A stretch of 21,114 bases of DNA from Candidatus Woesearchaeota archaeon (GTDB lineage: Archaea; Nanobdellota; Nanobdellia; Pacearchaeales; GW2011-AR1): positions 1 to 21,114 of the forward strand of contig CAZHCL010000014.1 of assembly GCA_964530955.1 (NCBI GenBank), in the 5' to 3' direction. The translations under genes and the position numbers were made by a program. Numbering within the stretch: position 1 is the first letter of the stretch; each line of letters begins with the position of its first letter. This document shows positions 1-21,114 of the stretch, piece after piece. The notes beneath the pieces are model-generated. The model was given only the letters and a program-made list of their open reading frames with translations. It searched no databases and was not told the origin of the DNA.

Positions 1-72
1 AGAAAAATAATGTTCAGAAACGCCCCTCAAAAAGACGAAGATAACATCATAGCAGAAAAGAAAAAATGGTAA
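1..72 (+). CDS. 3' end of a CDS entering from the left (…RKIMFRNAPQKDEDNIIAEKKKW*)
   Basis: Frame open from base 1 to TAA at 70-72; next ATG follows at 74. Confidence 0.5.
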   Translation, partial: RKIMFRNAPQKDEDNIIAEKKKW

Positions 73-73
73 T

Positions 74-349
74 ATGAAAAATAAAACCAAAATAATTCTT
101 ATAATCTCACTTTTTATCCTAGTTATTGTTCTATCAGCAGCATATTACATCATTTACCTAAACATTGCACATAGTACTTTTGAAAATTATTACAAATTTA
201 GAGGTTGTGTAGAATTAATTAATAAAACAGACAGCTATGGATTTTGTAAAATAAGCTCTGGAGAAACAATAAAACTGGTAAAGTATAAAGAGAAATGGTT
301 TTTAGACGGAGATTTGCCAGTATCATGTGGGATTATTAACTGTCCATAA
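74..349 (+). CDS. Small membrane-anchored/secreted hypothetical protein
   Basis: Basic N-terminus, hydrophobic helix (IILIISLFILVIVLSAAYYII), then a small domain with 4 Cys. Confidence 0.75.
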   Translation: MKNKTKIILIISLFILVIVLSAAYYIIYLNIAHSTFENYYKFRGCVELINKTDSYGFCKISSGETIKLVKYKEKWFLDGDLPVSCGIINCP

Positions 350-405
350 AAATTCAGGATAAAACCAAACAAAACAATTAAAAAGCAATTTCCTCAAAAT
401 ATAGT

Positions 406-930
406 ATGAAAAAGTCAAAAAAGGCTGATAAAAAAGAGAACAAGAAACCGAAAGCAGTTAAAAAAGAAGAGAAAGAAGAAATTTCACTCGATGATGCATT
501 CGCAGACGATGAAGGAGTCGAATACGCTCCTTCAAAGCCTAGAAAGGAAAAGAAAAAAGGGATGAATGAAGATGAAATGGAAGAAGAGATAGAGGAAGCA
601 GAGGAAGAGGAAGAAAAAATAAGCAGTTCAATAAATAGTTCAGATGATCCGGTAGATAGAGAGATAACGTTCAAGGCTTCAAAGCCTCTAGCTAAAGTAA
701 AGAAGGGAGATAAAATAAAAATTGATGGAGTTGAATATGAAGTTGACAGCCATTATATCCTCATTGATCACGGCTCAACAAAAGAAATGGCATTAGATAT
801 CTTTGAGCCAAAATCAGACAGAGATTATCAGCTAAGGTATTTTGATGACCAAGTTGAATCAACCCTGGACTTCTATGAGCTTAGAGATATAATGTATTTC
901 AAAAAACCAATGAAAAAGATTGAATGGTGA
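406..930 (+). CDS. Hypothetical protein: K/E/D-rich disordered N-terminus plus beta-rich C-terminal domain (possibly DUF4178-like)
   Basis: Charged low-complexity first ~80 aa. VKKGDKIKIDGVEYEV resembles the start of DUF4178-type domains (from memory, unverified). Confidence 0.7.
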   Translation: MKKSKKADKKENKKPKAVKKEEKEEISLDDAFADDEGVEYAPSKPRKEKKKGMNEDEMEEEIEEAEEEEEKISSSINSSDDPVDREITFKASKPLAKVKKGDKIKIDGVEYEVDSHYILIDHGSTKEMALDIFEPKSDRDYQLRYFDDQVESTLDFYELRDIMYFKKPMKKIEW

Positions 931-960
931 AATAGCAAGGGTTATTAATCCTTTTTTATT

Positions 961-1782
961 ATGTTAAGTATGAAAAAGGCGTTTGTCATTCTTGCATCTC
1001 TTCTGTCAGTTATTTTAATTATCAATGCCGTAGAGGCAGAAAGCATCCCCAAACCCTATGACATGTACGTTAATGACTACGCACATATTTTCTCTGCTCC
1101 AGATACATCTTACCTACAAGCATTGTTAAATGAAGTACAGCAAAATACAACTGCTCAAGTAGTAATAGTAACCTTACAAAGTCTTAACGGCTCAGACATA
1201 TCTCAATACACAACAGATTTAGGGCAGGCTTGGGGAGTAGGCAATAAAGATAATAGCAATGGTTTTGTTATACTATATTCAGCGGAAGAAAATAAAATAT
1301 TCGCTGCTTCTGGATATGGATTGGAAGGAATTCTTCCTGATTCAAAAATAGGTAGACTATTAGATGAAAATTATGTTCCTCTAAAAAACTCAGGCAATGT
1401 AAGTGAAGGAATTATTAAATTCACAGAAGCAATCTCTCAGGTAATTGAACAAAATGCGGATGAAATTAAATCAAATCAATCGCAAGGACAGGGAGCAATA
1501 GGAATAATCCCTATTGTTCTAGGATTATTCATATTTTTCTTTTTTATAGCCTTGATATCTTATCCTTTCACAAAAAGAAAGGGTGGAAGAGGATTTGGTG
1601 ACTTCTGGACATTCTTCTTCATAGACTTCCTAGTAAGAAGCATATTGTTTTCAATAATATTCAGGGGAGGGAGAGGCAGGTCCTCAGGAGGAAGCAACTT
1701 CGGAGGAGGTTTCGGAGGTGGTGGATTCGGTGGAGGCGGCTTTGGTGGCGGTGGCTTTGGCGGAGGGGGAGCGGGAAGATAG
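961..1782 (+). CDS. TPM-domain (YgcG-like) membrane protein with Gly-rich tail; probable true start ATG 970
   Basis: Signal peptide; YVNDYAHIFS, QVVIVT, WGVG, NGFVIL, GYGLEGILPD motifs; TM helix; GGGFGGGG…GGGAGR end. TATA-like TTATTAA at 942-948 fits ATG 970. Confidence 0.92.
   Translation: MLSMKKAFVILASLLSVILIINAVEAESIPKPYDMYVNDYAHIFSAPDTSYLQALLNEVQQNTTAQVVIVTLQSLNGSDISQYTTDLGQAWGVGNKDNSNGFVILYSAEENKIFAASGYGLEGILPDSKIGRLLDENYVPLKNSGNVSEGIIKFTEAISQVIEQNADEIKSNQSQGQGAIGIIPIVLGLFIFFFFIALISYPFTKRKGGRGFGDFWTFFFIDFLVRSILFSIIFRGGRGRSSGGSNFGGGFGGGGFGGGGFGGGGFGGGGAGR
1699..1770 (+). repeat. Coding (FGGG/FGGGG)x5 glycine repeat
   Basis: ttc gga gga ggt ttc gga ggt ggt gga ttc ggt…; units diverged at synonymous sites. 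Confidence 0.9.
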
Positions 1783-1812
1783 TTTTTTAAACTAAACTTT
1801 TCTAATACTAAT

Positions 1813-2391
1813 ATGAAGAAATCAACCATCGCATGGATTATTGTTGGAGTAGTAGTTCTATTATTAATAGGATTTGTAGTAGGCTCATATAATAGTTTCG
1901 TCACTCTTAATCAGAATGTTAATAGTGGTTGGAGCGAAGTAGAAAACCAGTACCAAAGACAGGCTGATTTAATTCCAAATTTAGTTTCAGTAGTATCAAG
2001 TTCAGTAGGAGTTGAAACTAAGTTTGTTAAGGATGTTATTGCAGAAAGAACAAGTTGGCAGAGTGCGCAGACTCAGCTTGAAAAAGATACAGCAGGACAG
2101 CAGTTAAATAACGGAATAACTGCATTGGTAAGTGCAGTCTCTGAAAATTATCCCGTATTGCAAGCAAATCAGCAGTATACTGCATTAACTGATGAATTAT
2201 CAGGAACACAGAATAGAATAACTGTTGCAAGAGGAAGATACATTACATCAATACAAGCCTACAACACAGCAATCAAAGTATTCCCTGGAAACATAATCGC
2301 TGGAATGTTCGGATTCTCTGAGAAGCAATATTACCAAGCAGCAGAAGGAGCAATGAACACCCCTCAGCTTGGAACTGGAACTCTTCCTTAA
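1813..2391 (+). CDS. lemA: LemA family protein
   Basis: N-terminal TM helix; YNSFVTL, WSEVENQYQRQADLIPNLV, ENYPVL, ELSGTQNRITVARGRY, YNTAIKVFPGNIIAGMFGF. Confidence 0.95.
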   Translation: MKKSTIAWIIVGVVVLLLIGFVVGSYNSFVTLNQNVNSGWSEVENQYQRQADLIPNLVSVVSSSVGVETKFVKDVIAERTSWQSAQTQLEKDTAGQQLNNGITALVSAVSENYPVLQANQQYTALTDELSGTQNRITVARGRYITSIQAYNTAIKVFPGNIIAGMFGFSEKQYYQAAEGAMNTPQLGTGTLP

Positions 2392-2436
2392 GATAATTAA
2401 GGTAAGGTTTAATAATAATGATTTTTTCTTTTTAAT

Positions 2437-3741
2437 ATGGGCTTAGTTGAAGATAAAGTCAAGAAGTATCTTGAAGTTATAAAAAAAGATAATGGAAAGA
2501 TTAATGCAATTCTTCATTTAAATGATAAAGTACTGGAAGAAGCAAAATCAGTTGATTCAAAGGCTAAGAAGGGAAAACTTTATGGATATGTCTTTGCAAT
2601 TAAAAGTAACATTAACGTAAAAGATTTGATAACGAATTGCGCTTCTAAAGTTCTTGAAGATTACGTTGCACCCTATGATGCTACAGTGATTGAAAAAATA
2701 AAGGCAGAAGACGGAGTAATAATAGGAATGACTAATATGGATGAGTTTGCTGCTGGAGGAAGCGGAGAGAATAGCGCATTTGGATGCGCATTAAATCCCA
2801 GCGCAAAAGATAGAATTCCTGGAGGTTCAAGCTCTGGCTCCGCATCTGCCGTGGCAGCAGGTTTCTGCGACGTTGCTTTGGGAAGCGACACAGGAGGAAG
2901 CATAAGAAATCCAGCATCAAATTGCGGAGTAATAGGAATAAAACCTAGTTATGGACTAGTAAGTAGGTATGGATTAATTGATTTATCCATGAGTCTTGAC
3001 CAAATAGGAGTTATTGCAAAAAATATTGCTGATGCTTCTTTAGTTTTAGATATAATAAAAGGAAAAGATGAGCAGGATACAAAAACATTTGAATCTGAAC
3101 CTATAAAAATAGAAAATCTAAAGAAAGTAAAGATAGGTGTGTTAAATATAAAGAATGTTGACAAAAAAATACAAAAATTAATTGACGATAAAGTTGCTGA
3201 GTTAACTAAAAAACTAAAATGGACTTCAAAAGAGGTAGAAATAAGTCATATTGATCTTGCGGTACAAACATATTATCCTCTTGTTTACACTGAATTCTTC
3301 TCAGGAACAAGAAAATTCGATGGCAGACGTTTTGGAAAGAAGATAGAAGAATCTTGCGGTCCAGAAGTTCTTAGAAGAATAATGGGCGGAAGTGAAATTA
3401 CAAAAGCAGAATACAAAGGAAGATACTACAAGAAAGCGCTTGAAGTAAAAGAAGTAATAAAAGAAGAATTTGAATCAGTATTCAATGATGTTGACTGCAT
3501 AATTCTTCCAACTGTTCCGGGATTACCCTGGAAAATAGGAGAAGGAAAGAAAATGGCTCCAGAAAAGATGTATGCCTATGATATTTGCACTATTCCAGCA
3601 AATCTGGCAGAAATATGTGCCATTTCAATGCCAGCAGGCAAAGTTGATTCAATTCCAGTAGGCATGCAGATATTCTGCGCAAAAGGCCAGGAGAGCAAAA
3701 TGCTTTCCATTGCAAAAATGATTGAAGAAATTAATAATTAA
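2437..3741 (+). CDS. gatA: Asp/Glu-tRNA amidotransferase subunit A (amidase signature family)
   Basis: Catalytic Lys in AIKSNI, GMTNMDEFA, PGGSSSGSA, LGSDTGGSIRNPA, KPSYGLVSRYGL, SLDQIG, EVLRRIMGG. Confidence 0.93.
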   Translation: MGLVEDKVKKYLEVIKKDNGKINAILHLNDKVLEEAKSVDSKAKKGKLYGYVFAIKSNINVKDLITNCASKVLEDYVAPYDATVIEKIKAEDGVIIGMTNMDEFAAGGSGENSAFGCALNPSAKDRIPGGSSSGSASAVAAGFCDVALGSDTGGSIRNPASNCGVIGIKPSYGLVSRYGLIDLSMSLDQIGVIAKNIADASLVLDIIKGKDEQDTKTFESEPIKIENLKKVKIGVLNIKNVDKKIQKLIDDKVAELTKKLKWTSKEVEISHIDLAVQTYYPLVYTEFFSGTRKFDGRRFGKKIEESCGPEVLRRIMGGSEITKAEYKGRYYKKALEVKEVIKEEFESVFNDVDCIILPTVPGLPWKIGEGKKMAPEKMYAYDICTIPANLAEICAISMPAGKVDSIPVGMQIFCAKGQESKMLSIAKMIEEINN

Positions 3742-3773
3742 GCTTATAAGGCTGGAAAATTTTAACATAAAAG

Positions 3774-4451
3774 ATGGAAATAAACAATGTTAAAATTGAA
3801 TTCCTAGGACACAGCGGATTTTTAATAAGTAATGGAGATGGAAAGAAAATTTTCATAGACCCTTTCAGCATTTCGGAGAGCGTTGCAACCCAAAAAGCAG
3901 ATTTTATTTTTATAACTCATAGCCACTACGACCATTGCTCTATAAAAGACATAACAAAGCTGGTCAAAAAAGGAACTGTAATAGTAGTCCCCGCTGATGC
4001 ACAAAGCAAGATAACAAAAATAGAAGATGTCCAGATGCAGGTTATTGAAGTAGGTGATGAAATAGACTTCGGCAAGTTCAAAGTAGAAGCAATGCCTGCA
4101 TATAATGTAGGAAAAGATTTTCATACAAAAGCAGATGGCTGGGTAGGATATGTAATGAAATTTGATAAAGTAATAATATACCATGCGGGAGACACCGATA
4201 AGATACCTGAAATGAGCAGGCTTACAGGATATGGCAAGCACGGCCAGGAATTCATAGCACTTCTACCTGTTTCAGGAACCTACGTCATGAATGCTGATGA
4301 AGCAGCAGATGTCGCCTCAATGCTTAATGTAGATTTAGCCATACCCATGCATTATGGAGCAGGAGTCGCAGGCACAGAAGATGATGCCAAAAAGTTCGTT
4401 GAAGCCTGCAAGCAACTTGATGTTTACGCCCAAGTTCTGGATAAAATTTAA
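3774..4451 (+). CDS. Metallo-beta-lactamase-fold hydrolase (UPF0173/UlaG-like)
   Basis: FLGHSGF, IDPF, THSHYDH (HxHxDH), YHAGDT, IPMHYG. Confidence 0.92.
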   Translation: MEINNVKIEFLGHSGFLISNGDGKKIFIDPFSISESVATQKADFIFITHSHYDHCSIKDITKLVKKGTVIVVPADAQSKITKIEDVQMQVIEVGDEIDFGKFKVEAMPAYNVGKDFHTKADGWVGYVMKFDKVIIYHAGDTDKIPEMSRLTGYGKHGQEFIALLPVSGTYVMNADEAADVASMLNVDLAIPMHYGAGVAGTEDDAKKFVEACKQLDVYAQVLDKI

Positions 4452-4493
4452 GATAATAACACATTATTTAAACTAAAATTATGTTTAAAACTA

Positions 4494-5537
4494 ATGATAG
4501 AACTAGTTAAGCCCGAATTTGTTAAAGGAGATGAGAAAAGATTCAATAAGTTTGTATCTGAATTAAAAAGCAGCGATAAAATAGCCCTAATAAGCCATGA
4601 AAGCGATCCTGACGGTATCATAAGCGCTAAAATAGTAAATGCTGCTGTAAAAACCAGCTTTATCAAATTTATAGGCTACACTGACGCAAACATAGAGCTA
4701 GTTAAAGAAGTAAAAAAATCAGGAGCAAATAAAGTAATAATCACTGATTTATACATAAAAGACAGAAACTTCCTTGATAAATTAGCTGAATTTTCAGAAA
4801 TCCTTATAATAGACCACCACTTATTTGAAAATGATTGGAATTCGGATAAAATAATTTTTATGAACGCCCAGGAATTCTGTGCAGCCTATTTGACCTACTA
4901 TTTATTTAGAAAAACAAAAGACATTGAAAAATACGACTGGCTTGTAGCCTGCGCTTCAGTAAGTGACTGGCAATATACAAAAAATGCAAGATGGATGGAA
5001 GATGTATATGAAAAATATAAGGAGAAATTCAGTCCAACAATAGAAGGAATAAAGAAAAGCAAGTTTTTTGAGATAGTTGATAAAATAAGTCTTGGAATAA
5101 TCTATCATAAAAAAGAAGTTAAGATAATATACGAGCAAATAGGAGAAAAATTTGGAGACATAGGAAATATTGAAAAACATTCAGCAGAAGTGAGAGATGA
5201 AATAAATAAATTGCTTATCGATTTCGAAAAAAATAAAATAAATATTAAAGATGGCTTCTTCTATGAAATAGAAAGCAGATTACCTCTAAGTTCCTATTTA
5301 TGCACGACAATCAGCTCAAAAATTCAGAATAAAACAATAATTATTTCTCAAAAAGAAAATGATATATACAAAATGTCAGCAAGAAGACAAGATAAAAAAG
5401 AAAGTATGGACTCTTTTCTTAGAGAATTAGTTTCAGGATTAGAAAATAGCAAGGCAGGAGGCCATACGGCTGCTGCCGGAGCGAGTTTTATGTTGAAAGA
5501 TTTGGAAGAATTTAAAAAAAGAATCAAAAATCTATGA
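4494..5537 (+). CDS. DHH/DHHA1 phosphoesterase (RecJ/NrnA-like)
   Basis: SHESDPDGIIS, IITDL, IIDHH, SVSD, MSARR, GGHTAAAG. Confidence 0.9.
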   Translation: MIELVKPEFVKGDEKRFNKFVSELKSSDKIALISHESDPDGIISAKIVNAAVKTSFIKFIGYTDANIELVKEVKKSGANKVIITDLYIKDRNFLDKLAEFSEILIIDHHLFENDWNSDKIIFMNAQEFCAAYLTYYLFRKTKDIEKYDWLVACASVSDWQYTKNARWMEDVYEKYKEKFSPTIEGIKKSKFFEIVDKISLGIIYHKKEVKIIYEQIGEKFGDIGNIEKHSAEVRDEINKLLIDFEKNKINIKDGFFYEIESRLPLSSYLCTTISSKIQNKTIIISQKENDIYKMSARRQDKKESMDSFLRELVSGLENSKAGGHTAAAGASFMLKDLEEFKKRIKNL

Positions 5538-10157: not shown

Positions 10158-10430
10158 ATGTCACAAATAGATATAACTAAAATTAGTTCTAAAGGACAGA
10201 TAGTAATACCTCAAGAACTTAGGCAAGACTTCAACGAAGGAGATAAACTTATAGTAATAAGGAACGATGACCAGATTATACTAAAAAAAGCAGACAAATT
10301 TGATAAACAAATAGAAGAAGATATAATCGTAGCAAAAAGAGTTGAGGCGGCATGGAAAGAAATAGAGCAAGGAAAATATAAAAGAATGTCCAGTGAGGAT
10401 TTTCTTAAAGAAATAAGAAGCCTAAAATAA
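10158..10430 (+). CDS. AbrB/MazE/SpoVT-family antitoxin
   Basis: TKISSKGQIVIPQELRQDFNEGDKLIV swapped-hairpin motif; acidic C-terminal tail. Confidence 0.92.
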   Translation: MSQIDITKISSKGQIVIPQELRQDFNEGDKLIVIRNDDQIILKKADKFDKQIEEDIIVAKRVEAAWKEIEQGKYKRMSSEDFLKEIRSLK

Positions 10431-10433
10431 AAA

Positions 10434-10682
10434 ATGGTAAAAGAGATTATAAGAACAGATAATTTCTTAAAGCGACTGAAAAAGATAGACAAATCAATTT
10501 TAGATAGAGTTGAAAAATTAGTTCTCAAAATTATCAATAATCCTGAAATAGGAAAACCTATGCGCTATGATAGAAAAGAAACGAGAGAATTACATCTGCC
10601 ACCTTTTAGATTAAATTATATTTACGATAAATCCAGAGATATACTTATTTTCTTAGATATCTATCATAAAGATGAACAATAA
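10434..10682 (+). CDS. RelE/ParE-family toxin
   Basis: FLKRLKKID…IINNPEIGKPMRYDRKETRELHLPPFRLNY…LDIYHKDEQ. Confidence 0.9.
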   Translation: MVKEIIRTDNFLKRLKKIDKSILDRVEKLVLKIINNPEIGKPMRYDRKETRELHLPPFRLNYIYDKSRDILIFLDIYHKDEQ

Positions 10683-10693
10683 AAAGCGATCAG

Positions 10694-10725
10694 ATTTTCT
10701 AATTTGATTAATTAAAAATAATTTA
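10694..10725 (+). repeat. Direct repeat copy 2
   Basis: ATTTTCTAATTTGATTAATTAAAAATAATTTA. Confidence 0.7.
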
Positions 10726-10785
10726 CTACTGCTCAAGATGAAAATCAACAAGCAACTTTAAATATTTGCTGATACCTTAATTAAT

Positions 10786-11742
10786 ATGGAAAAAGCTTAC
10801 GCAGTTGATGCTATGATTGCAACGGTTAGAGGAGTAGGCGACTCGGAGCCTGTTTTCTTCCAGAGAAATGGATGTTTTTATGTGGCTTCTCCCCAAGGGT
10901 TCGGAAGAATGTCATACGGTTTATCATTAAGTCCCCAAAACCCAGAAAATAAAAGGTACATGACCGAATTGCCAGAAATAGAAAATTCTCAAGATTTAAC
11001 AATAAGAGAAGGCGAGGGTCTAAACGAGAAATTAAGATTAAAAGAAAGCGAGCTAGAAAGAACAAGACCTTTGATAATGCATGAAGATTCGGGAGAATCT
11101 TTTAGTCTTGAAAGCATGGCAAACTTAGCAAAAGCACTTCAAAAAATAGGTGATGATGGCAATATCAGACTAGTATCTCATTATACCTCATACCATAGTC
11201 ATAAACATGGATATGCAGCAGATGGGACTGACACATCACTTGATGGAGCAAGAGTCATGCAAAGAGAAAAATACCTTGAAATCATGCGCAGCAGGGAAGA
11301 TGGATTTTTTGAAGGGTTATTAAAAGCTACAAAAGAACAGTTAGGCAGAGTATATGAAAGTTCGTCCATTAGTTACATGATGCCTCAGGGAAGAGTTGTC
11401 CATATACCTGATGTTTTAATAGCCACACCCAACGTAATGGCAGCATTCCCTAGAAGAGTATTCTTTGACCATCATAATAGGAATTCAACTTGGCAGAAAG
11501 ATACTGACTTTAGCAGACCCGTTTTTTCAAGGGCAGCAATATATGATAGACTTCCATTTTCATTTAGTTGCATAATCAACAGACAAGCAGTCAATGTGCA
11601 AAACACAAAAGAGCTTGAGACAGAATTAACTAAAAAACTGACTGGAGTTTCGGATGATATTGCTGGTTTAAATAAAGCAATGCCTCAAATTGAAGCTTTC
11701 CTAACAAGAATAAACGGCGCGCATAATGCTGTGTTGAAATAA
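10786..11742 (+). CDS. Hypothetical protein
   Basis: 318-aa ORF; TTTAAATA (10757-10764) 21 nt before ATG; no family recognised. Confidence 0.8.
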   Translation: MEKAYAVDAMIATVRGVGDSEPVFFQRNGCFYVASPQGFGRMSYGLSLSPQNPENKRYMTELPEIENSQDLTIREGEGLNEKLRLKESELERTRPLIMHEDSGESFSLESMANLAKALQKIGDDGNIRLVSHYTSYHSHKHGYAADGTDTSLDGARVMQREKYLEIMRSREDGFFEGLLKATKEQLGRVYESSSISYMMPQGRVVHIPDVLIATPNVMAAFPRRVFFDHHNRNSTWQKDTDFSRPVFSRAAIYDRLPFSFSCIINRQAVNVQNTKELETELTKKLTGVSDDIAGLNKAMPQIEAFLTRINGAHNAVLK

Positions 11743-11851
11743 GATATAGCTTATTGGGAAAATGTCAGAAATGAGGCAGCAGCCAAAAGACAAAAAGATA
11801 AAGGCAAAGAATCTCTCGTGCCATTCTAATAAATAAAATTCTATTAATTAT

Positions 11852-12106
11852 TTAATCGTTAGGATATCTCACTTCAAGACCCTTCGCCCTCGCTTCCATA
11901 AGAGTTGAAGGCACACATTTCTTGTCAGTAAAAGCACAAATTATACAACAGCCAGTTATAGGCGTCTGAATTCTCTTTCCGCATTTATCGCAGTCAAAAT
12001 ACTGGGGGCTACTGTCAAGAGGAACTTTTCTAAGACTGACAGCACCGCATGAAGGACATTTAATCTTTGCATTCTTAGCTATTTTAGCTACTCTTTTTTT
12101 ACCCAT
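11852..12106 (-). CDS. GDCCVxC-domain-like Cys-rich small protein
   Basis: CPSCG…P…QYFDCDKCG…TGCCIICAF…C matches the family Cys pattern. Confidence 0.8.
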   Translation of the reverse strand: MGKKRVAKIAKNAKIKCPSCGAVSLRKVPLDSSPQYFDCDKCGKRIQTPITGCCIICAFTDKKCVPSTLMEARAKGLEVRYPND

Positions 12107-12143
12107 GAATCAAAAAAGAAATATAGATTAATAAATCTGATTA

Positions 12144-12512
12144 TTAATATCCTCTCTTTAAAAGCGCATCCAAGGGTAATTTTAACTTTTTTAGCAGACC
12201 ACTCAAATTATCAGAATTCTTAGGTTCTCCTATGAGTTCGATTTCAGAAGGAGATGAATAATCCCACCTAGTAGATGTACCTTTATATGTCGTCTTGGGC
12301 GAAACACAAACAATACATCCATCTATCAGATAAAAAGAATCAGAACCTGCGTTGTAGCCTGAAGAAACTTTGACATGGGGTCTAGATTTAAGTAGTTTAA
12401 CAGCACGAATTAAAATAGGCTGCCTGACATAAATATCATAAGTATCACCGTACTTAGTCTTTTTATATCCGAAGCTTACAGACAAAGGTTTTTTAATCAC
12501 AACCCAAAACAT
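12144..12512 (-). CDS. Hypothetical protein
   Basis: 122-aa ATG-started ORF filling an otherwise empty interval. Confidence 0.65.
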   Translation of the reverse strand: MFWVVIKKPLSVSFGYKKTKYGDTYDIYVRQPILIRAVKLLKSRPHVKVSSGYNAGSDSFYLIDGCIVCVSPKTTYKGTSTRWDYSSPSEIELIGEPKNSDNLSGLLKKLKLPLDALLKRGY

Positions 12513-13025: not shown

Positions 13026-13096
13026 GGCCCATTAGGCTAATGGTAGACCGGGTCGTTTACACCGACCATGCCGAGGTTCGATCCCTCGATGGGCCA
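13026..13096 (+). tRNA. tRNA-Val(TAC), CCA not encoded
   Basis: Acceptor GGCCCAT/ATGGGCC + A; anticodon arm GGTCG-TTTACAC-CGACC; T arm CGAGG-TTCGATC-CCTCG. Confidence 0.93.
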
Positions 13097-13951: not shown

Positions 13952-14038
13952 ATGTTCCTAGATTTAAGAGCATTTTAAAATCTATACGCAATCATTCTCA
14001 CCAAAAGGTAATTATATCTTCATTTTCTAAGACAAAAA

Positions 14039-14109
14039 GGCCTTGTAGTCTAATGGTAGAACATCTCGTTCACGTCGAGAGAGCCCAAGTCCGATTCTTG
14101 GCAGGGCCA
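14039..14109 (+). tRNA. tRNA-Val(CAC), CCA not encoded; integration target
   Basis: Acceptor GGCCTTG/CAGGGCC + A; anticodon arm TCTCG-TTCACGT-CGAGA; T arm CCAAG-TCCGATT-CTTGG. Confidence 0.93.
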
Positions 14110-14118
14110 TTTACATCA
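14104..14118 (+). repeat. Candidate 15-bp target-site duplication (left copy)
   Basis: GGGCCATTTACATCA = last 6 nt of the tRNA plus 9 nt of trailer, directly before GGGG. The partner copy is not in the window. Confidence 0.5.
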
Positions 14119-14145
14119 GGGGTATATTACATCTCCCGAATTCCG
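14119..14145 (+). repeat. Candidate casposon terminal inverted repeat (left end)
   Basis: GGGGTATATTACATCTCCCGAATTCCG resembles my recollection of the Aciduliprofundum boonei casposon end (GGGGATATATATACATCCCC…). The partner is not in the window. Confidence 0.6.
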
Positions 14146-14277
14146 AACCCTATATAGCATAGTTCTATAGAAAAGATATAGGAAAAGTATAGATATTAGA
14201 GTAAAATTTAATTTATTGTATGGTTTAATACAGCTATGACTTTATATAGGTCTTTATAATCAAGTAGGTATTAACAG

Positions 14278-14658
14278 ATGACAAAGTTAAAAGAGAATGT
14301 AAACAAATTGAACGCATTACTTAAAGAAGGTAAAATTACCGAAGCCTTTCAAAAGTATTACAATATTGATGTAAATATACATATTGATGGAAAACCGCCT
14401 ATAACTGGAAAAGAACAAAAGAGGGAAATGATATTTCTTCAAGAAATAGAAAAATTAAACTCTGCTGAGATAAAATTAGTTGCTTTTGGAGGAGTTGATG
14501 ATGATTTTTCAGTAACAGAATGGGAAATAAATATTGAAAATAAAAAAGGAGAAAAGAAAACAATTTATCGTGTAAATGTTCAACATTGGAAAGATGATAA
14601 AATTATTGATGAAAAAATATATTTTTGTGGTGACCAAAAATTTAAAGTAGAAGATTAA
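14278..14658 (+). CDS. SnoaL-like / NTF2-family protein (cargo)
   Basis: GKITEAFQKYY…DV…P.ITGK…SVTEW…QHWKDDKIIDEKIYF. Confidence 0.8.
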   Translation: MTKLKENVNKLNALLKEGKITEAFQKYYNIDVNIHIDGKPPITGKEQKREMIFLQEIEKLNSAEIKLVAFGGVDDDFSVTEWEINIENKKGEKKTIYRVNVQHWKDDKIIDEKIYFCGDQKFKVED

Positions 14659-14663
14659 TAAGT

Positions 14664-15839
14664 CTATTTCCAATAAATCCAATCGCTATAAGATTCGCCT
14701 GATATAACATTATCTCCATAAGCTCTCACATAAATTCTAAACTGCTGTCCAGTTGGCGAGTGTAGATTAGTTACTGTATATTGATAAGCTCCTTCTGGGT
14801 CTATCTCTAAAGAGTCACTTGTTACATCACTCCAAACTTTAGTTTGGTCTACGGTTTGTAAAGCAACATATATTTTAGTATTCTTTGCCGTTTCAGAGCC
14901 TAAGTTTTTCACAGTAACATTTACATTAGTATACACATCTCGATAGTTGTAAGCATAATTTGAGATAAAATGAATTTCAAGAGATGGTTTTTCAACAATA
15001 GGAAGGATAATCGCTTGTGAATTTTTAAATTCGTCAGGTATTTGTCCAACATCCCAACCTTTAGATGTAGTTTCTAAATAACAAAAGTCCATTCCACCAT
15101 ATGCATAATAGGATTGTCCAGCCGAAGGTGTACATTTTATTCCAACAGCCATGTGACCTACTGGATTTCCTTTAAATTCTAACATAGCTACACCATAGCC
15201 TAACTCATTAAGCATAGAAGATACTAGAATCGAAGTGTCTTCACAATCTCCGCCATCATCATAAATAGTTTCATAAGGGAATCTAGGATATTCATCAAAA
15301 CCAGTTGTGACTTTATCGGAAGTATATGGGAGACTTTGAACAAAAGAAATAATAAAATAGGGTATTTCTGAATCACTCAATCCGCTATTTTTACCGTAAT
15401 CTCTCAAATTTTCAGTAATACTTTTGATAAATGGTTTACTATAAATATCTGAGGCAAATAAATCATAATCTCTAACTCTTTCTCTAGCTTTGAAAACCTT
15501 ATCAACTTCGGGATATAATGTAATGGTTGTCTCATAACTATAACCTTTGTAATCCCATTTAAAGTCTCTAGTAAAAGCTCCTTTTTGATAATCAGATAAT
15601 GTATTGCTCTGACTTTGAATTGTTTGAGAAGTATTTGTTTGGTCATTTTGAGAGGGCGTTTGTAGATAGGTTTGACCTTGAGAAGAAGTTGGTGCTGGAT
15701 TATTAGCCGAAGTACTACTTGAGTTATTGGTAGAAGAATTATCTCCAAAGAAGTATCCAATCAGAACTAAAGCAATGAAAATCCAAAAGATAATCCAAAG
15801 CGTTCTCTTCCACACACTCTTTTTGGGTTTTGAATCCAT
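14664..15839 (-). CDS. Membrane-anchored transglutaminase-like cysteine protease with C-terminal Ig/CARDB-like domain (cargo)
   Basis: Likely start MDSKPKK at 15839 (ORF track extends to a TTG at 15887). TM helix; S/T/Q linker; FVQSLPY, GDCEDTSIL (Cys), GHMAVGI (His), YLETT; VNVTVKNLGS. Confidence 0.85.
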   Translation of the reverse strand: MDSKPKKSVWKRTLWIIFWIFIALVLIGYFFGDNSSTNNSSSTSANNPAPTSSQGQTYLQTPSQNDQTNTSQTIQSQSNTLSDYQKGAFTRDFKWDYKGYSYETTITLYPEVDKVFKARERVRDYDLFASDIYSKPFIKSITENLRDYGKNSGLSDSEIPYFIISFVQSLPYTSDKVTTGFDEYPRFPYETIYDDGGDCEDTSILVSSMLNELGYGVAMLEFKGNPVGHMAVGIKCTPSAGQSYYAYGGMDFCYLETTSKGWDVGQIPDEFKNSQAIILPIVEKPSLEIHFISNYAYNYRDVYTNVNVTVKNLGSETAKNTKIYVALQTVDQTKVWSDVTSDSLEIDPEGAYQYTVTNLHSPTGQQFRIYVRAYGDNVISGESYSDWIYWK

Positions 15840-15883
15840 AAAAGATATTGGTTTAACTAACTTAAAAACATATTGAATAATAC

Positions 15884-18520
15884 TCAATTCAATAATTTCT
15901 TTACTGCTTTAGTCTTCCAATTAAAATTAATAGGGTCTTTTCTTAATCGGTCTTTCATTTCCCATAAAGTAGACTTAGATACTTTGTGTCCTCTAGCTTC
16001 CTTAAAGGATATTTTCATTATCTTCTCAATCTTTTCCTTTTCAGATTTATATTCTAATGGTTTATCAAGCAATAAAGGTAATTGTTCTAAATTCTTTATT
16101 TCTTTTCCGATAAAGATTAATTCTGCTTCATTTACATGTCTTCTTTCAAGCTTACCGCTTTGAGTGCCATTAACAAATTTAGATTCGGGATGATTTGCAT
16201 ATTCTAAAATTGTATCTGCTAAGCTTTTCCAATATTCTAAACCTTTAAGGGTCTTTCCAGATTTGTAATCAATAAACTTTTCATAAACAGCAGATTGAGG
16301 ATTACTAGAATATGGAGCAATAGGCTTAACATTTCTATGATTCTTTTGACCAACTAGAAAGAAATTGAAAGGCTTAATCTGTTTTGATAATGGTTTATCC
16401 CTATTAAATTCCTTAAATCTTTTATAAATTGAAGGTGTCGAGACTGCAATCTTAGACATCGAATACAAAGAGGAGTATTTGTTTATGATATCTTCTTGAG
16501 TTATTATTTTATAATGTAATTTTAATATGTCTTCCCATATTTCTTTATGCCATTTCTCCCCATCCTTAAACTGTTTATCGAAGGGGTTTAGCAAATAGCC
16601 TAATCCATGAAGCTTAAAGTTGTCTTTCTCTATGATTATCTTATCATTTTCTATTCGATAAAGTACATATCTCTTTGCACTGATTCCATAGAACAAATAT
16701 TTTTCTTTCTCAATCTTGAAAAAGTCCTCATTAAATTCATAGGGATTAAGGGGCTTAAAGAGGACTTTTAGCCCTTCTGCATATTCTGAGGGAGCGTAAC
16801 AAGCGTCAGTATCCATATAGACATGGCAAGTATTTCTATCTTGAAGATACTTTTCTGCCATCGCTAAAAGAAGCCTAGCTCCCGCAACTTGCATAACTGC
16901 AATTAGTGGATTAAAGAACTTGCCCTCTTCTTCTACTTTCTGTTTAGTGAAAAATTGCTCCTTGCTATAAACAGTCAAATCACTATCTTTCTGCATAGTT
17001 CTAAGTTCGATAAATATACCATATGTCAAAGAATTAGCTAGAATCTTTACCGCTCTCTGCTTTCCGTCAAGTCTACTATATTCTTCTAAGACCTTTTGAA
17101 TTTTATCTCTTAATTCCTTAAAAGAATGTCTTTTCTCAATTAATATTTTTATAAAATTCTGTTCTCTTGGGTCTACTTCAATACCTAAAATATTAGTTTT
17201 CTTTAATGTCTCTTGCTTTCCAACTGGAATAAATCCAATAGCTCTTTTTATCTTAGGAATCTTGCCAGTTAATAACAAAGAAGCGATAACATCAGGCAAA
17301 GCATAATAAAGAGACTTGCCATATTTCAAATAATTAATTCCTACATTATACACGTCTCCTTTAGCGAGATAATTAGACCTTATTGGTAGAATATCCTCAT
17401 CAGGCTCTAACTCAACTAAGATATTCATTAACTTCCAGACATCTTTATTTGTTAAGCTCTCTAAGGTAATTCTATTCAACAATTCGATAGTTTCTTTTGT
17501 CATATCTTTTTCTTGAATCTCTTTAGCGATTACATAATCCCATAGACCCATGTTTATCGTGAGCGAAGGATACATACTTAGAAAATCTAAAACAGAGACC
17601 TCAATAGGAGTTTTTCTTATCTTTGTCTCACATCTTCCACCAAAATAAGCAGACATTAGTTGCCCTTTGACTTTTGCATTAATCTTTGTGCTGATTTTAG
17701 ATAATGGTTGTATTCCCATTTGTCTTAATGCACATTTTCCTAGAGAAGCGCTAGAGTATATTTTATTGAGATTACCTTTAATTTGGAATTTATCAAAATG
17801 TTTTTCTATATTCTTATACAATTCATAAGTTGAGACTAAATCATTAAGATTGTAGTCAAGATATTCTTCATTAATAACTCCGTGTTCTTTAGCTTTCTTC
17901 TTTATAGTCTCACATTCAAAGAATTTACCAGCGCTTTCTAAACTAGCGTGTTTATCATCCATGAATATAACTGATGGAGTTCTCAAATCTAAGAAATGAC
18001 CTTTAAACCTCTTAGAGAATTGAATAAAACTAATAGCCGAATCTATGCTCTTTATTTTCAGTCTAGGGAGAAACTTATTTTGTGATAGTTGAATAGAAAA
18101 CCAATCTCCTTTATGTGTATGCCTACTATCACTAAAATGTATAGCTAATCTGCTCAAATCAAAGGGAAGATTAAAGCCAACACATAAAGATTTAGCTTCA
18201 AGCATTTCAGGATAAAAGATATCTTCAATGAATCTTTCAACATCAAAGAGCTGAATGTTATTTTTATCGCAATACTTCTTAATAATTTCTAATTCTTCTT
18301 TAGTAAGGTTATCTTTATGGTAAAAAATTCCCGTTAAATTCTTCTGTGAGTTCTGAACTATCATAAAAGAGCCAAACTTTAAGTTTTGATATTCATCACT
18401 TGTTGTTTCAGTGTCAAATATAAGCAATCGAGTAAATTCATTATTCACTTCTGTGCCTTCCCATTTAAGTTTTTTGTTAGTCTCTTCTGTATAAGCTCTA
18501 ATTGCTATCTTATTTCTCAT
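15884..18520 (-). CDS. polB: Family B DNA polymerase, protein-primed/casposon-type, with 3'-5' exonuclease
   Basis: ExoI IFDTETT, ExoII GFNLPFD, ExoIII YNLND, YFGGRCE, motif A DFLSMYPS, motif B KILANSLTYG, motif C YMDTD, KRY; C-terminal HTH-like KVSKSTLWEMK. Confidence 0.95.
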   Translation of the reverse strand: MRNKIAIRAYTEETNKKLKWEGTEVNNEFTRLLIFDTETTSDEYQNLKFGSFMIVQNSQKNLTGIFYHKDNLTKEELEIIKKYCDKNNIQLFDVERFIEDIFYPEMLEAKSLCVGFNLPFDLSRLAIHFSDSRHTHKGDWFSIQLSQNKFLPRLKIKSIDSAISFIQFSKRFKGHFLDLRTPSVIFMDDKHASLESAGKFFECETIKKKAKEHGVINEEYLDYNLNDLVSTYELYKNIEKHFDKFQIKGNLNKIYSSASLGKCALRQMGIQPLSKISTKINAKVKGQLMSAYFGGRCETKIRKTPIEVSVLDFLSMYPSLTINMGLWDYVIAKEIQEKDMTKETIELLNRITLESLTNKDVWKLMNILVELEPDEDILPIRSNYLAKGDVYNVGINYLKYGKSLYYALPDVIASLLLTGKIPKIKRAIGFIPVGKQETLKKTNILGIEVDPREQNFIKILIEKRHSFKELRDKIQKVLEEYSRLDGKQRAVKILANSLTYGIFIELRTMQKDSDLTVYSKEQFFTKQKVEEEGKFFNPLIAVMQVAGARLLLAMAEKYLQDRNTCHVYMDTDACYAPSEYAEGLKVLFKPLNPYEFNEDFFKIEKEKYLFYGISAKRYVLYRIENDKIIIEKDNFKLHGLGYLLNPFDKQFKDGEKWHKEIWEDILKLHYKIITQEDIINKYSSLYSMSKIAVSTPSIYKRFKEFNRDKPLSKQIKPFNFFLVGQKNHRNVKPIAPYSSNPQSAVYEKFIDYKSGKTLKGLEYWKSLADTILEYANHPESKFVNGTQSGKLERRHVNEAELIFIGKEIKNLEQLPLLLDKPLEYKSEKEKIEKIMKISFKEARGHKVSKSTLWEMKDRLRKDPINFNWKTKAVKKLLN

Positions 18521-18833
18521 TGTTTAACTCATTAATCTTTTTTTCTCTTAGTTCACGTAAACATTCTATACCTAACTCAAAAAATCCAATAGAGCTAGTT
18601 ATAGCCATAATCTCTTTATCTTTTCTCAATTCAACTGGAAGAGAATCTTGAAAACAGCTAATAAAATCATGAAATTCTTTAAGTAGAGGTATTTGCTGTT
18701 CTGAGTTTATTCTTCCATGTACATGATGGCTTTCTATTTTCTGATTAGGCGCTTTCAAATTAACCTTATCCATCTTTCCCTTCTCTATTCTCTTTCTTCT
18801 ATTCCCTAAATATCTGGTTAAATCTTCATTCAT
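18510..18833 (-). CDS. HNH-like protein lacking Zn-finger cysteines
   Basis: Probable start MNEDL (ATG 18833) with SD GAGGTG; ESHHVHGRINSEQQIPLLKEFH; overlaps both neighbours. Confidence 0.7.
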   Translation of the reverse strand: MNEDLTRYLGNRRKRIEKGKMDKVNLKAPNQKIESHHVHGRINSEQQIPLLKEFHDFISCFQDSLPVELRKDKEIMAITSSIGFFELGIECLRELREKKINELNNEK

Positions 18834-19470
18834 CGGAATACACCTCATAGACTTCTGAATCTTCTTTTGATTCTTCAATATCTCGAACATTCTCAGGATT
18901 AGTTTCTAATCTGTGCCTCTTTCTGTAAATATCAATTATTATTTTATCTTTGAATGGTGTAAGATAGCTAGAATCTCCAGTTAAAAGATAATTCTTAACT
19001 GCATTGTAATAAGACCCAATCAAAGAAGCATATTTTGATTTGTTTACTATGATTGTGATTATTCTACCTTTTTCATAAATCTGCAAAGCTCTTTGTATTG
19101 AATCTGTTTTATTTGCTATCCATCTGCCCGACCTCTTCCTTATTGCTTTTCCTAGATAAATTAAAGTCTCAGATTGAGCAAAACCTATTTCTTCACAAGC
19201 AGATGATAGAGATTCCCCTTTTCTCATCTGTCTTAATATCTCTAAAGCCAAAATTCTTTTATGCTTTTGCTTAGCAGTTAGTAAAGTCCATCTTTTCTTA
19301 GACAAATCTAAATCGCTTAATCTTTTTTCTCTTAAAACTTTAAGAGATTCATTAGGAAAATAATCGTGAAGCCTTGTTATTCTTTTATAATATCTTGAAT
19401 TATTATTAACGTGTGTCTTCCAATGATTGAAAGACGAGTGTCTTGCTGAAAATCTACCTCTTTTTTCCAT
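18826..19470 (-). CDS. Basic HTH-containing protein of casposon type
   Basis: LEILRQMRKGESLSSACEEIGFAQSETL HTH; RSGRWIA…DSIQR…ASLIGSYYNAVKNYLLTGD…LETNP. Alternative GTG start at 19476. Confidence 0.8.
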   Translation of the reverse strand: MEKRGRFSARHSSFNHWKTHVNNNSRYYKRITRLHDYFPNESLKVLREKRLSDLDLSKKRWTLLTAKQKHKRILALEILRQMRKGESLSSACEEIGFAQSETLIYLGKAIRKRSGRWIANKTDSIQRALQIYEKGRIITIIVNKSKYASLIGSYYNAVKNYLLTGDSSYLTPFKDKIIIDIYRKRHRLETNPENVRDIEESKEDSEVYEVYSDE

Positions 19471-19527
19471 AGACACAAGAAAATAAAAATAAATTGTGTT
19501 TCGCTACTAGATAGCTCATCAGTATGG

Positions 19528-19758
19528 TTAATCTTCTACTTGTGCAGTAGGCAACTCTTTCTGTTTTTCATCTGTAGCTAAGAGAATCGTATAAGCTGGA
19601 CTTTTATCATCAAGCTTCTCTCCTTTCTTCGCTTCAAAAGGCATAACTATCACTCTAACAGTTTGCCCCGCAATCAATTCAACCACGCCAGAAAAGAACT
19701 TTTTGTTATTTTTCTCTTTGCGCCACAATGCGCCAATCTTTTTTAAAGCCATTTTCAA
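19528..19758 (-). CDS. DUF736-like small protein (putative ssDNA-binding)
   Basis: KIGALW.K…KFFSG…K…DKSPAYTI pattern; SD-like GGGGGTG upstream; TTGA overlap with the RHH gene. Confidence 0.65.
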   Translation of the reverse strand: MKMALKKIGALWRKEKNNKKFFSGVVELIAGQTVRVIVMPFEAKKGEKLDDKSPAYTILLATDEKQKELPTAQVED

Positions 19759-19928
19759 CTTGCACCCCCTTTCATGTTATTGTCTTCTTGCAAGAAATCT
19801 TTCAAGTGCTCATACAGCGCTGTTCTGATTATCTCAGCCTGTGAACAACCTCTATGTTCTGATGCTTTCCTTAAAACCCTTCGTAGAGCCTCAGGAAGGC
19901 ACACCAATAGTTTACTTGTTTCTATCAT
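19755..19928 (-). CDS. Ribbon-helix-helix (CopG-like) protein, 57 aa, not in ORF track
   Basis: Hand translation: MIETSKLLVCLPEALRRVLRKASEHRGCSQAEIIRTALYEHLKDFLQEDNNMKGGAS*. Confidence 0.85.
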   Translation of the reverse strand: MIETSKLLVCLPEALRRVLRKASEHRGCSQAEIIRTALYEHLKDFLQEDNNMKGGAS

Positions 19929-19943
19929 GGTAAAACTAGGCTA

Positions 19944-19961
19944 CCTATATTCTTATATAGG
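19944..19961. promoter_or_regulatory. Palindromic operator in the divergent promoter region
   Basis: CCTATAT-TCTT-ATATAGG between the RHH gene (-) and the HTH-HEAT gene (+). Confidence 0.55.
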
Positions 19962-20008
19962 CTTAATATCTAATATGATATAGATAGTATATACAAGATG
20001 AGACTAAA

Positions 20009-20155
20009 ATGAGTGAAAATGATAACGAAGACGTTGATGAAGCGATATTAAAAGCCGTAGAGGTGAGACAATTCATCAGAAGGAAAGATTTGCTCAAATT
20101 ATTATTGAAAGAAGATGAAAAAACTAAGTCGAATACAAAGCACAAAAATGGTTAA
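20009..20155 (+). pseudogene. N-terminal fragment (helices 1-2) of a winged-helix protein, 48 aa
   Basis: Hand translation MSENDNEDVDEAILKAVEVRQFIRRKDLLKLLLKEDEKTKSNTKHKNG*; it would join naturally to ISKATLNRHISNL at 20533. Confidence 0.55.
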
Positions 20156-20532
20156 CTCATATTATTTAACATCACACAAGCACACACTAAAAAGCACAGC
20201 GCACAAAACGCTGAGAAAGCACAACTAAAAGTGGTGAAATAGTGCTAAAACAGTACAAAAACGCTAAAATGACCATAAATAACCAAAATAACCCGCTAAA
20301 TACCACTAAATCCGACAAAAACAGCAGCGCTAAAAAGGGGAAAAAGGGGATTCAGGGGAAAAAATCAGCAAAAAATTACGCTAACGTAGCGCAAAGTCCC
20401 TTTATTTCACGTAAGCGTACGCATGAGCCCACGCTAGAGCGTACGCTACCAGCGCAGACGCCTATTTTTCCACAGCAGAGCACGGCGGAAATGGCGGATT
20501 TGTGGGCGGAAGAGGACATAAAAAAGCTGGAT
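20153..20532. other. Compositionally anomalous ~380-bp segment interrupting the HTH-HEAT gene
   Basis: A/C-rich with ~10-bp phased A-tracts, then G4 runs, then a GC-rich CGCT/AGCG palindrome array. Boundaries are approximate. Confidence 0.55.
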
Positions 20533-21114
20533 ATATCTAAAGCAACACTGAATAGGCACATTTCTAACTTAATAGGGCTGAAAAAACTTATTACAATTAA
20601 GTCAGAAGATTTTAGAAAGTTTGGATTGACAGAAACAGACAAAAAAGCCCGTTTTCTAACACTAGCTAGAAATGATTCTCTTCCAAAATACTACAATTTA
20701 GTTCTATCTTCATTAAAGAGCGAAGACCCAACTATGAAGAAAAACGCCCTTATTGAACTTGAATCAATGAACTCTATTAGTCTGTTGCCTAGCCAACTAA
20801 CCAATTTAGTCTCAAAGTTATTAAAAGAAAGCTATGAGATAAGTGAAAGAATAATCAGAGTAATTTATAACAATTTTCAGAAAGGAATTGTACCATCAAA
20901 CTTAAACAAACTTCAAAATAATTTAATCTTGTTCTACGAAAAGAATAAAGAAAAGACAAATCAAAACACTAAAACTTCAATAATGTTCATGCTAGGAGTG
21001 CTAGGCAATAAGAAAATAATTAAGTTTCTCAAAGAAGATATAATCAAAAATAAAACTTATAATGACTTGCAACTGGAAGGTTATATTAGTTGGTTTGTTG
21101 CTAAAGTAATTGAT
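20242..21114 (+). CDS. HTH recognition helix + HEAT-like repeat protein (casposon HTH-HEAT type), runs off the window, not in ORF track
   Basis: Frame open from 20215 to the end. Candidate starts: GTG 20242 (SD GGTGA at 20233), ATG 20269, ATG 20491. ISKATLNRHISNLIGLKKL…LSSLKSEDPTMKKNALIEL. Confidence 0.75.
   Translation, partial: MLKQYKNAKMTINNQNNPLNTTKSDKNSSAKKGKKGIQGKKSAKNYANVAQSPFISRKRTHEPTLERTLPAQTPIFPQQSTAEMADLWAEEDIKKLDISKATLNRHISNLIGLKKLITIKSEDFRKFGLTETDKKARFLTLARNDSLPKYYNLVLSSLKSEDPTMKKNALIELESMNSISLLPSQLTNLVSKLLKESYEISERIIRVIYNNFQKGIVPSNLNKLQNNLILFYEKNKEKTNQNTKTSIMFMLGVLGNKKIIKFLKEDIIKNKTYNDLQLEGYISWFVAKVID

Follow-up and report, generated by a model that had tools for sequence, protein, structure and literature searches.

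It has been proposed that the CRISPR adaptation machinery descends from casposons, elements that, to our knowledge, are described only from Euryarchaeota (mostly methanogens), Thaumarchaeota and a small number of bacteria. Three casposases have been studied biochemically, and the characterized tRNA targets are tRNA-Leu and tRNA-Pro. In this report, we analyze an element in contig CAZHCL010000014.1 (here C14), from an assembly deposited as a Candidatus Woesearchaeota archaeon; the whole contig, 21,114 bp in length, is referred to as the window. A preliminary description of the window, made from its letters, had proposed a casposon at a tRNA-Val(CAC) gene in a DPANN host. Our analysis bears this out: terminal inverted repeats (TIRs), a target site duplication (TSD), Cas1 and PolB are all present, and we conclude with high confidence that this is a complete, autonomous family-2 casposon of ~11.5 kb, inserted at the 3' end of tRNA-Val(CAC) in a DPANN archaeon.

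The closest described elements are the family-2 casposons. These are euryarchaeal, insert at tRNA-Leu, at tRNA-Pro or in intergenic sequence, and have TSDs of 14-15 bp (PMC4046053, PMC4779613, PMC6977970, PMC9939771). In the family-2 casposons of Methanosarcina mazei, the duplication is 14 bp long and begins with the final 4 bp of tRNA-Leu (PMC6977970, PMC4779613); within the family, the TSD overlaps 4-7 terminal nucleotides of the tRNA (PMC6977970, PMC4046053). The element in the window shares with the M. mazei casposons (for example, MetMaz1FA1A3-C2, and the casposase of structure 6OPM) this geometry of the TSD at the tRNA end, a C-terminal helix-turn-helix (HTH) in the casposase, genes for PolB, HNH-like, HTH and HTH-HEAT proteins, TIRs of tens of bp that start with GGG, and the natural occurrence of both empty and occupied alleles. 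It differs from them in its host, which is a DPANN archaeon and not a methanogen, and in its target, which is tRNA-Val(CAC) with a TSD starting GCCA, as opposed to tRNA-Leu and CGCA. Its Cas1 carries K-P in place of R191 and R192 and falls into a separate, DPANN-dominated clade, and its HNH-like protein is without the CxxC motif. A further family-2 casposon, AciBoo-C1 of Aciduliprofundum boonei, is likened here by its description in the literature: it integrates at the 3' end of tRNA-Pro, duplicates 14-15 bp, leaves the tRNA intact and has the same core gene set, but its tRNA and host phylum differ (PMC4046053, PMC6614799).

Other elements with a PolB gene were also compared with the window. 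Casposons of family 1 have a protein-primed PolB, a Cas1 without HTH and a target at the 3' end of aEF-2; this family was ruled out by the Cas1 C-terminal extension, the tRNA target and the family-2-type PolB of the window element. Pipolins combine a primer-independent PolB with a tyrosine recombinase and direct att repeats, and were ruled out because no recombinase was found in the element's open reading frames (ORFs) and its ends are inverted repeats with a TSD. Family 4 (elements like MetMaz1FA1A3-C1) also has Cas1 and PolB, and its Cas1 clade is sister to that of family 2 (PMC4779613). Family-4 elements, however, are without HTH-HEAT and have TIRs of ~225 bp and TSDs of 35 bp, whereas the window element has HTH-HEAT, TIRs of 51 bp and a TSD of 14 bp.

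A full-text literature search found no paper describing casposons in DPANN archaea, a provisional result because subscription journals are outside the reach of that search. As a casposon of family 2, the element is orthodox; its new aspects are the host group, tRNA-Val(CAC) as target and the matched pair of occupied and empty sites. The novelty first ascribed to it stands in so far as no published description of this host group or target was found, and is smaller than had been supposed, since the element is of a known kind with relatives already present, unannotated, in many public metagenome-assembled genomes (MAGs) of DPANN archaea.

Element boundaries and the unoccupied site

The genome comprises 26 contigs with a total of 761 kb and is estimated to be 82.7% complete. 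The element extends over positions 14120-21114 of the window and positions 1-4512 of a second contig, C20 (locus L003), split by an assembly break of ~6 nucleotides. Its ends were located by a blastn search of the left junction against the genome, which gave two adjacent matches on C20. The left junction contains the following features.

14039..14109, + strand: tRNA-Val(CAC), the integration target, intact despite the insertion (ARAGORN)
14106..14119, no strand: TSD of 14 bp, GCCATTTACATCAG, with a 14/14 match to C20 4513-4526, where it abuts the right inverted repeat
14120..14170, no strand: left TIR of 51 bp, starting GGGTATATTACATC, with a 50/51 reverse-complement match to C20 4462-4512

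The last four nucleotides of the tRNA, GCCA, are the first four of the duplication. An element end close to this tRNA had already been noticed, and it is real in that it recurs as an inverted copy, followed by the duplicated target, at the far end of the element. Its position needs correction: the inverted repeat begins with GGGTATATT at 14120, not at 14119, and G14119 is the final base of the TSD. The two TIRs differ at one of 51 positions and the two TSDs at none of 14, and the genome contains a single copy of the element.

To find an empty site, we scanned metagenome contigs for the exact pattern of the predicted unoccupied junction, and one contig (L107) was returned. One strand of L107 consists of window positions 13994-14119 and C20 positions 4513-5382, both at 100% identity, with a single shared 14-mer where they overlap; occupied and empty alleles thereby have identical flanks over 126 and 870 bp. 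Because L107 joins both flanks through a single 14-mer, the boundaries are proven, and C14 and C20 flank the same site. This contig, together with the 50/51 inverted copy and the perfect 14-mer on C20, also excludes a chance origin of the element end. Since an unoccupied allele with identical flanks exists, the insertion is either recent or (precisely) reversible. Excision of MetMaz-C1 in vivo likewise leaves one copy of the target (PMC10359463). The empty tRNA-Val site that had been suggested as a check in related genomes was thus found in a metagenome contig and not in the species genomes of 40 relatives, in which the prefoldin flank has at most 70% identity and no tRNA-Val beside it. Synteny downstream of FtsZ is not conserved in close metagenome contigs.

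The break between the two contigs falls within the HTH-HEAT gene. In the 313-aa orthologue of a sister element (locus L007), residues 38-252 align with the 3'-open ORF at 20242-21114, and residues 255-312 with the 5'-open ORF at C20 1-177. At the DNA level, comparison with L007 indicates that 6 nucleotides are missing between the contig ends. We infer from the orthologue alignment that C14 and C20 abut. The sequences at this break have no k-mers in common with any other contig. Elsewhere, the ends of several contigs share 35-90 nucleotides (the start of C14 with the end of C26, and the end of C20 with the end of C10, at 97%), from which the assembly graph could be joined further.

The window contains two tRNA-Val genes, 1 kb apart, tRNA-Val(TAC) at 13026-13096 and the tRNA-Val(CAC) listed above, with a 252-aa ORF without a family match between them. 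Of these neighbors, only the CAC gene is targeted.

The casposase

The preliminary description had left open whether a cas1 gene follows downstream, and had offered a non-autonomous derivative or the use of a different integrase as fallbacks. Neither is needed, as cas1 is present on the adjoining contig and encodes a family-2 casposase with a C-terminal HTH.

C20 174-1385: Cas1 casposase, 403 aa (PF01867, E 5e-62)

A search of the whole genome with PF01867 gives this gene as its sole Cas1. Residues 1-393 of the protein align to the M. mazei family-2 casposase structure 6OPM (E 5e-147), which is the best match in PDB, and the alignment covers the casposase-specific C-terminal region, including the HTH. 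Conservation extends to the active site, where E162, H231 and E246 correspond to E162, H232 and E247 of the M. mazei casposase (PMC6977970). The start of cas1 overlaps the stop of the HTH-HEAT gene by 4 nucleotides, as in L007. Neither cas2 nor a CRISPR array was found beside cas1 on C20, where the only tandem repeats are coding units of 102 nucleotides in a TPR gene.

In a quick maximum-likelihood tree, this Cas1 groups with casposases of Methanococcoides burtonii, Methanosarcina and Methanolobus and with those of DPANN loci; its identity to methanogen casposases is 52-57%. It falls into a clade of eight, supported by a value of 98 in the Shimodaira-Hasegawa-like approximate likelihood ratio test (SH-aLRT), and all seven named members are DPANN archaea, including Woesearchaeota and Nanoarchaeota. 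The DPANN clade is separate from the methanogen clade (support 99).

In the M. mazei casposase, base-specific contacts with the CGCA motif of the target come from R191 and R192 alone. The equivalent positions in the window's Cas1, within residues 186-196, read K-P. The RR pair is limited to the clade of Methanosarcina, Methanolobus and Methanococcoides; the window and L007 read VNKPFG, and other DPANN casposases have KKP, DTP or KRP. No simple code relates these residues to the target, because L007 has the residues of the window but a GGCG-type target.

PolB and other core genes

These genes lie in two divergent operons. The leftward operon has, in order, genes for a ribbon-helix-helix (RHH)-like protein of 57 aa, a 76-aa ORF, a 216-aa protein, the HNH-like protein and PolB. 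The rightward operon has the HTH-HEAT gene and then cas1. The window carries the following genes of the two operons.

15884..18520, - strand: family-2 casposon PolB, 878 aa, intact, with an HTH-like C-terminal tail; 43% identity to the M. burtonii PolB
18510..18890, - strand: HNH-like small protein, named by the motif in its family alignment
18826..19476, - strand: conserved family-2 core protein of 216 aa, with tblastn homologues in related loci; overlaps the HNH-like ORF
19528..19758, - strand: 76-aa ORF, overlapping the RHH-like gene by 4 nucleotides; present only in the closest relatives L007-L010, with 88% identity
19755..19928, - strand: RHH-like protein, 57 aa, first gene of the leftward operon; weak Pfam matches to DUF6290 (E 0.012) and RHH_1 (E 0.087)
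20242..21114, + strand: 5' part of the divergent HTH-HEAT core gene, open at its 3' end and continuing on C20 1-177; orthologue of a conserved family-2 core gene

An intact PolB in a coupled operon, and a divergent HTH-HEAT gene, had been noted at the outset, and these observations hold. The motifs of PolB were read directly from the 878-aa ORF: FDTETT (ExoI), NLPFD (ExoII) and YNLND (ExoIII) in the exonuclease, and DFLSMYPS (motif A), KILANSLTYG (motif B), YMDTD (motif C) and KRY in the polymerase. The start of PolB overlaps the stop of the upstream HNH-like ORF, which in turn overlaps the ORF at 18826-19476. Translation of the HTH-HEAT gene probably begins with the ATG at 20269, and homologues are present in 22 loci, that of M. 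burtonii among them.

PolB shares 43% identity, over 830 aa, with its counterpart in the M. burtonii casposon and has 2945 homologues in a representative library, and its Pfam match is weak (DNA_pol_B, E 6e-4). It has no match in 50,697 phage records and no usable match among PDB sequences, in agreement with the earlier proposal that it belongs with the polymerases of family-2 casposons and not with those of viruses or pipolins. Its C-terminal tail resembles the C-terminus of Cas1 (E 2e-4), and such similar tails are a published signature of family 2 (PMC4046053). The term PolB_CDTDS was not found in two text supplementary files of PMC7544198.

The remaining core genes are recognized largely by their conservation. 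The homologue sets of the 216-aa, HTH-HEAT, RHH-like and HNH-like proteins each include casposons of Methanosarcina, Methanolobus or Methanococcoides. For the 216-aa gene, tblastn found homologues in 42 related loci, among them casposons of all three genera (alignment A2); the protein has no significant Pfam match and is probably the second HTH protein of family 2. The names HTH and HTH-HEAT for these two core genes are taken from PMC4046053. Homologues of the RHH-like gene occur in 11 related loci, among them methanogen casposons, and the 76-aa ORF has no family match. Searches of Pfam, PHROGs and NCBIfam gave nothing significant for the domain names of the small proteins.

The HNH-like gene probably starts at an internal Met, giving a protein of ~108-112 aa. 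Homologues are found in 14 related loci, and the family alignment has the form E-x-HH-x-G-[RK]-x-N-S...PLC-x-x-CH...QN, with HH..N..H kept across 10 orthologues and E53, H55, H56, S63 and H74 invariant (alignment A3). An AlphaFold2 model (predicted local distance difference test score, pLDDT, 85) places a beta-beta-alpha unit at residues 52-82, which is the position of the motif. The Pfam HNH model matches one member of the family, marginally (E 0.035), and a search of PDB sequences with the family profile found nothing. We therefore call the gene HNH-like, on the basis of motif and literature, and not a proven HNH gene.

Cargo genes

Between the left TIR and PolB, the window carries two genes that we regard as cargo, and another lies on C20 downstream of cas1.

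14278..14658, + strand: cargo ORF, 126 aa; no Pfam, PHROG or NCBIfam match, and absent from all related loci
14664..15887, - strand: cargo ORF, 407 aa, with an N-terminal membrane anchor, a low-complexity linker, and transglutaminase-like (DUF553) and CARDB-like parts
C20 1429-2919: TPR cargo gene, 497 codons in one frame, with an in-frame TAG at 1711-1713

The assignment of the 407-aa protein is based on weak Pfam matches to DUF553 and CARDB and on Atlas feature matches of 0.95 to DUF553 clusters. A copy with 55% identity resides inside a casposon of a Nanoarchaeota MAG (L016). The TAG in the TPR gene may stem from nonsense mutation or sequencing error, or may mark a split gene. The other cargo on C20 consists of a membrane protein and a 278-aa orphan ORF (c278), for which Atlas gave only matches of low template-modeling (TM) score, to a low-confidence model.

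In L007, a C5 DNA methylase and a SacI-like restriction enzyme (10284-12415) replace the TPR and membrane-protein cargo downstream of cas1. Because L007 carries different genes there, the region downstream of cas1 is a variable cargo slot.

Host, relatives and distribution

The FtsZ protein encoded on C14 has 87-91% identity to proteins named as from Nanoarchaeota or Pacearchaeota archaea. At NCBI, Pacearchaeota stand under the kingdom Nanobdellati, which corresponds to DPANN. On FtsZ similarity, genome size and GC content, the host is assigned to DPANN, as had been proposed, and appears to be of the Nanoarchaeota/Pacearchaeota type.

A scan of GTDB species genomes with the Cas1 alignment found related loci in many Methanosarcinales and in MAGs of Woesearchaeota, Nanoarchaeota, Iainarchaeum, Forterrea and Aenigmatarchaeota. 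In nearly all DPANN loci with a full-length Cas1 match, PolB is situated ~2 kb upstream on the opposite strand; the exception is L070, where the Cas1 match is partial. Five DPANN relatives could be delimited by TIRs starting GGGTATAT/GGGATATA, a start that is common to related DPANN and methanogen casposons, and by TSDs of 14 bp. These relatives measure 9.9-11.3 kb and reside at the 3' ends of tRNA-Ser or tRNA-Arg where the tRNA is visible. Casposons in MAGs of Woesearchaeota (L012/L013), Nanoarchaeota (L016), Iainarchaeum (CP064981, L037) and Aenigmatarchaeota (L048) have the PolB/cas1 layout of the window, TIRs of 32-58 bp and 14-bp TSDs, but other tRNAs, other cargo and a Cas1 that is 45-63% identical to that of the window. 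The element is rare: the casposase was found in two of 400 other sampled genomes of the phylum, and its PolB in none of 16 genomes of the same genus.

The nearest relative is the sister element represented by L007, L008 and L009, which is 12.46 kb in length, with a Cas1 81% and a PolB 83% identical to those of the window. Its TSD, AGAAGAGTAACGCC, is at a tRNA-Ser site (right flank of L007 and left flank of L008), and in L008 and L009 another sequence, GGCGTCCAGTACTA..., comes after the right TIR (regions L007 12427-12480; L008 127-177 and 12567-12660; L009 11910-12010). The differing right junctions reflect either an identical element at two sites in those communities or chimeric assemblies. 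The core of the window element has ~80% DNA identity to L007, compared with 66-70% for the host flanks, and this higher identity of the core hints at horizontal spread.

Three MAGs labeled as uncultured Methanosarcinales (L017, L018 and L025) have Cas1 proteins 60-63% identical to that of the window, which are neighbors of the DPANN clades and do not belong to the classical methanogen clade. Mis-binning of DPANN contigs, or transfer between DPANN archaea and methanogens, could account for this placement.

Alternative explanations

Several points weigh against a complete and autonomous family-2 casposon. One cargo gene, that for the TPR protein, has an in-frame stop, and the HNH-like copy of the window keeps HH, N and H of the family motif but reads PLLKEFH where its relatives have PLCxxCH, so that the CxxC is lost; from these two features, some decay of the element is possible. 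A Foldseek search with the HNH-like AlphaFold2 model gave no match at E <= 0.001, and Pfam did not confirm the domain names HNH, HTH and HEAT for the copies in the window. The junction between C14 and C20 derives from alignment to an orthologue, not from a spanning sequence. The Cas1 tree was built without representatives of families 1, 3 or 4, and therefore the choice of family 2 over family 4 rests on gene content, the lengths of TIRs and TSDs, and similarity to family-2 members.

If these signs of decay were taken at full weight, the element would be a family-2 casposon that is no longer autonomous, a decaying copy fixed at its site, and L107 would derive from a lineage that the element had never entered. 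Inactive family-2 copies do exist, as M. burtonii shows (PMC4779613), and the presence of only one copy in the genome, with the missing zinc-binding cysteines and the TAG, would suit such a history. Nevertheless, the frames of Cas1, PolB, the 216-aa gene and HTH-HEAT are open over their full length, the catalytic residues are intact, and cysteine-free HNH-like variants are also found in other intact DPANN copies (L015, L013 and L044). The TIRs are near-perfect and the TSDs perfect, and the complete identity of the flanks in both alleles indicates a very young insertion; we consider a decaying copy unlikely. A second alternative is that the casposon of a co-occurring methanogen (Methanosarcinales) or other archaeon was wrongly joined to a DPANN genome in assembly or binning. 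The classical hosts of family 2 are methanogens, some of the nearer Cas1 relatives carry the label of uncultured Methanosarcinales, and the cas1 half of the element is on a short contig of 5.4 kb; but the left junction is on C14 itself, with its DPANN-type FtsZ, the host flanks of C14 and C20 are joined in the empty-site contig, the GC content of the element (~0.31-0.33) matches that of the genome (0.34), and the window's Cas1 groups with DPANN proteins at the SH-aLRT support given above. Such an artefact is very improbable.

The weak Pfam match of PolB and the many unannotated ORFs might also suggest another PolB-bearing element (a pipolin, a provirus with a protein-primed PolB, or a plasmid) or the remnant of a CRISPR adaptation module. 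To this we assign almost no weight: as the preliminary description had anticipated, no capsid or tyrosine recombinase gene is present among the element ORFs tested against Pfam and PHROGs, and terminase and serine recombinase matches were likewise absent; PolB has no phage match, no cas2 or CRISPR array is next to cas1, and Cas1 has the casposase-specific C-terminal domain. TIRs with a 14-bp TSD are hallmarks of transposons, not att sites.

Proposed mechanism

For the complete family-2 casposon that we favor, a mechanism can be proposed by analogy with the biochemically studied casposases of M. mazei and A. boonei. The Cas1 casposase encoded at C20 174-1385 would bind the 51-bp inverted ends and use their 3'-OH groups to attack the target strands, 14 bp apart, at the tRNA junction. 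Gap filling would then duplicate the 14 bp and restore the last four nucleotides of the tRNA, leaving the tRNA gene intact. The element's PolB presumably copies the element during transposition, and the HNH-like, 216-aa, RHH and HTH-HEAT proteins may be accessory or targeting factors.

Implications

The element leaves the understanding of what casposons are unchanged. It does provide a complete natural set of substrates (both ends, the 14-bp target and the empty site) for a casposase directed at another target, one that starts with GCCA. Because the residues that read the target in M. mazei are replaced in this Cas1, it also lends itself, as a natural test case, to the question of site choice by casposases.

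The host was unexpected: its genome, of ~0.9 Mb and without a CRISPR cas1, tolerates a self-synthesizing transposon of 11.5 kb. The element also points to unannotated DPANN casposons in public MAGs. A broader proposal, which we put forward tentatively as possible but somewhat more doubtful than likely, is that DPANN archaea host their own active family-2 lineage. This is suggested by the DPANN Cas1 clade, the gap between core and flank identity to L007, the two right junctions of the sister element and the cargo common with another DPANN casposon. Such a lineage would have spread horizontally among distant DPANN archaea, and possibly to or from methanogen neighbors. It would have been retargeted from tRNA-Leu and tRNA-Pro to many tRNAs (Val, Ser, Arg and perhaps Thr and His), and it may ferry surface-protein and restriction-modification cargo into genomes of less than 1 Mb.

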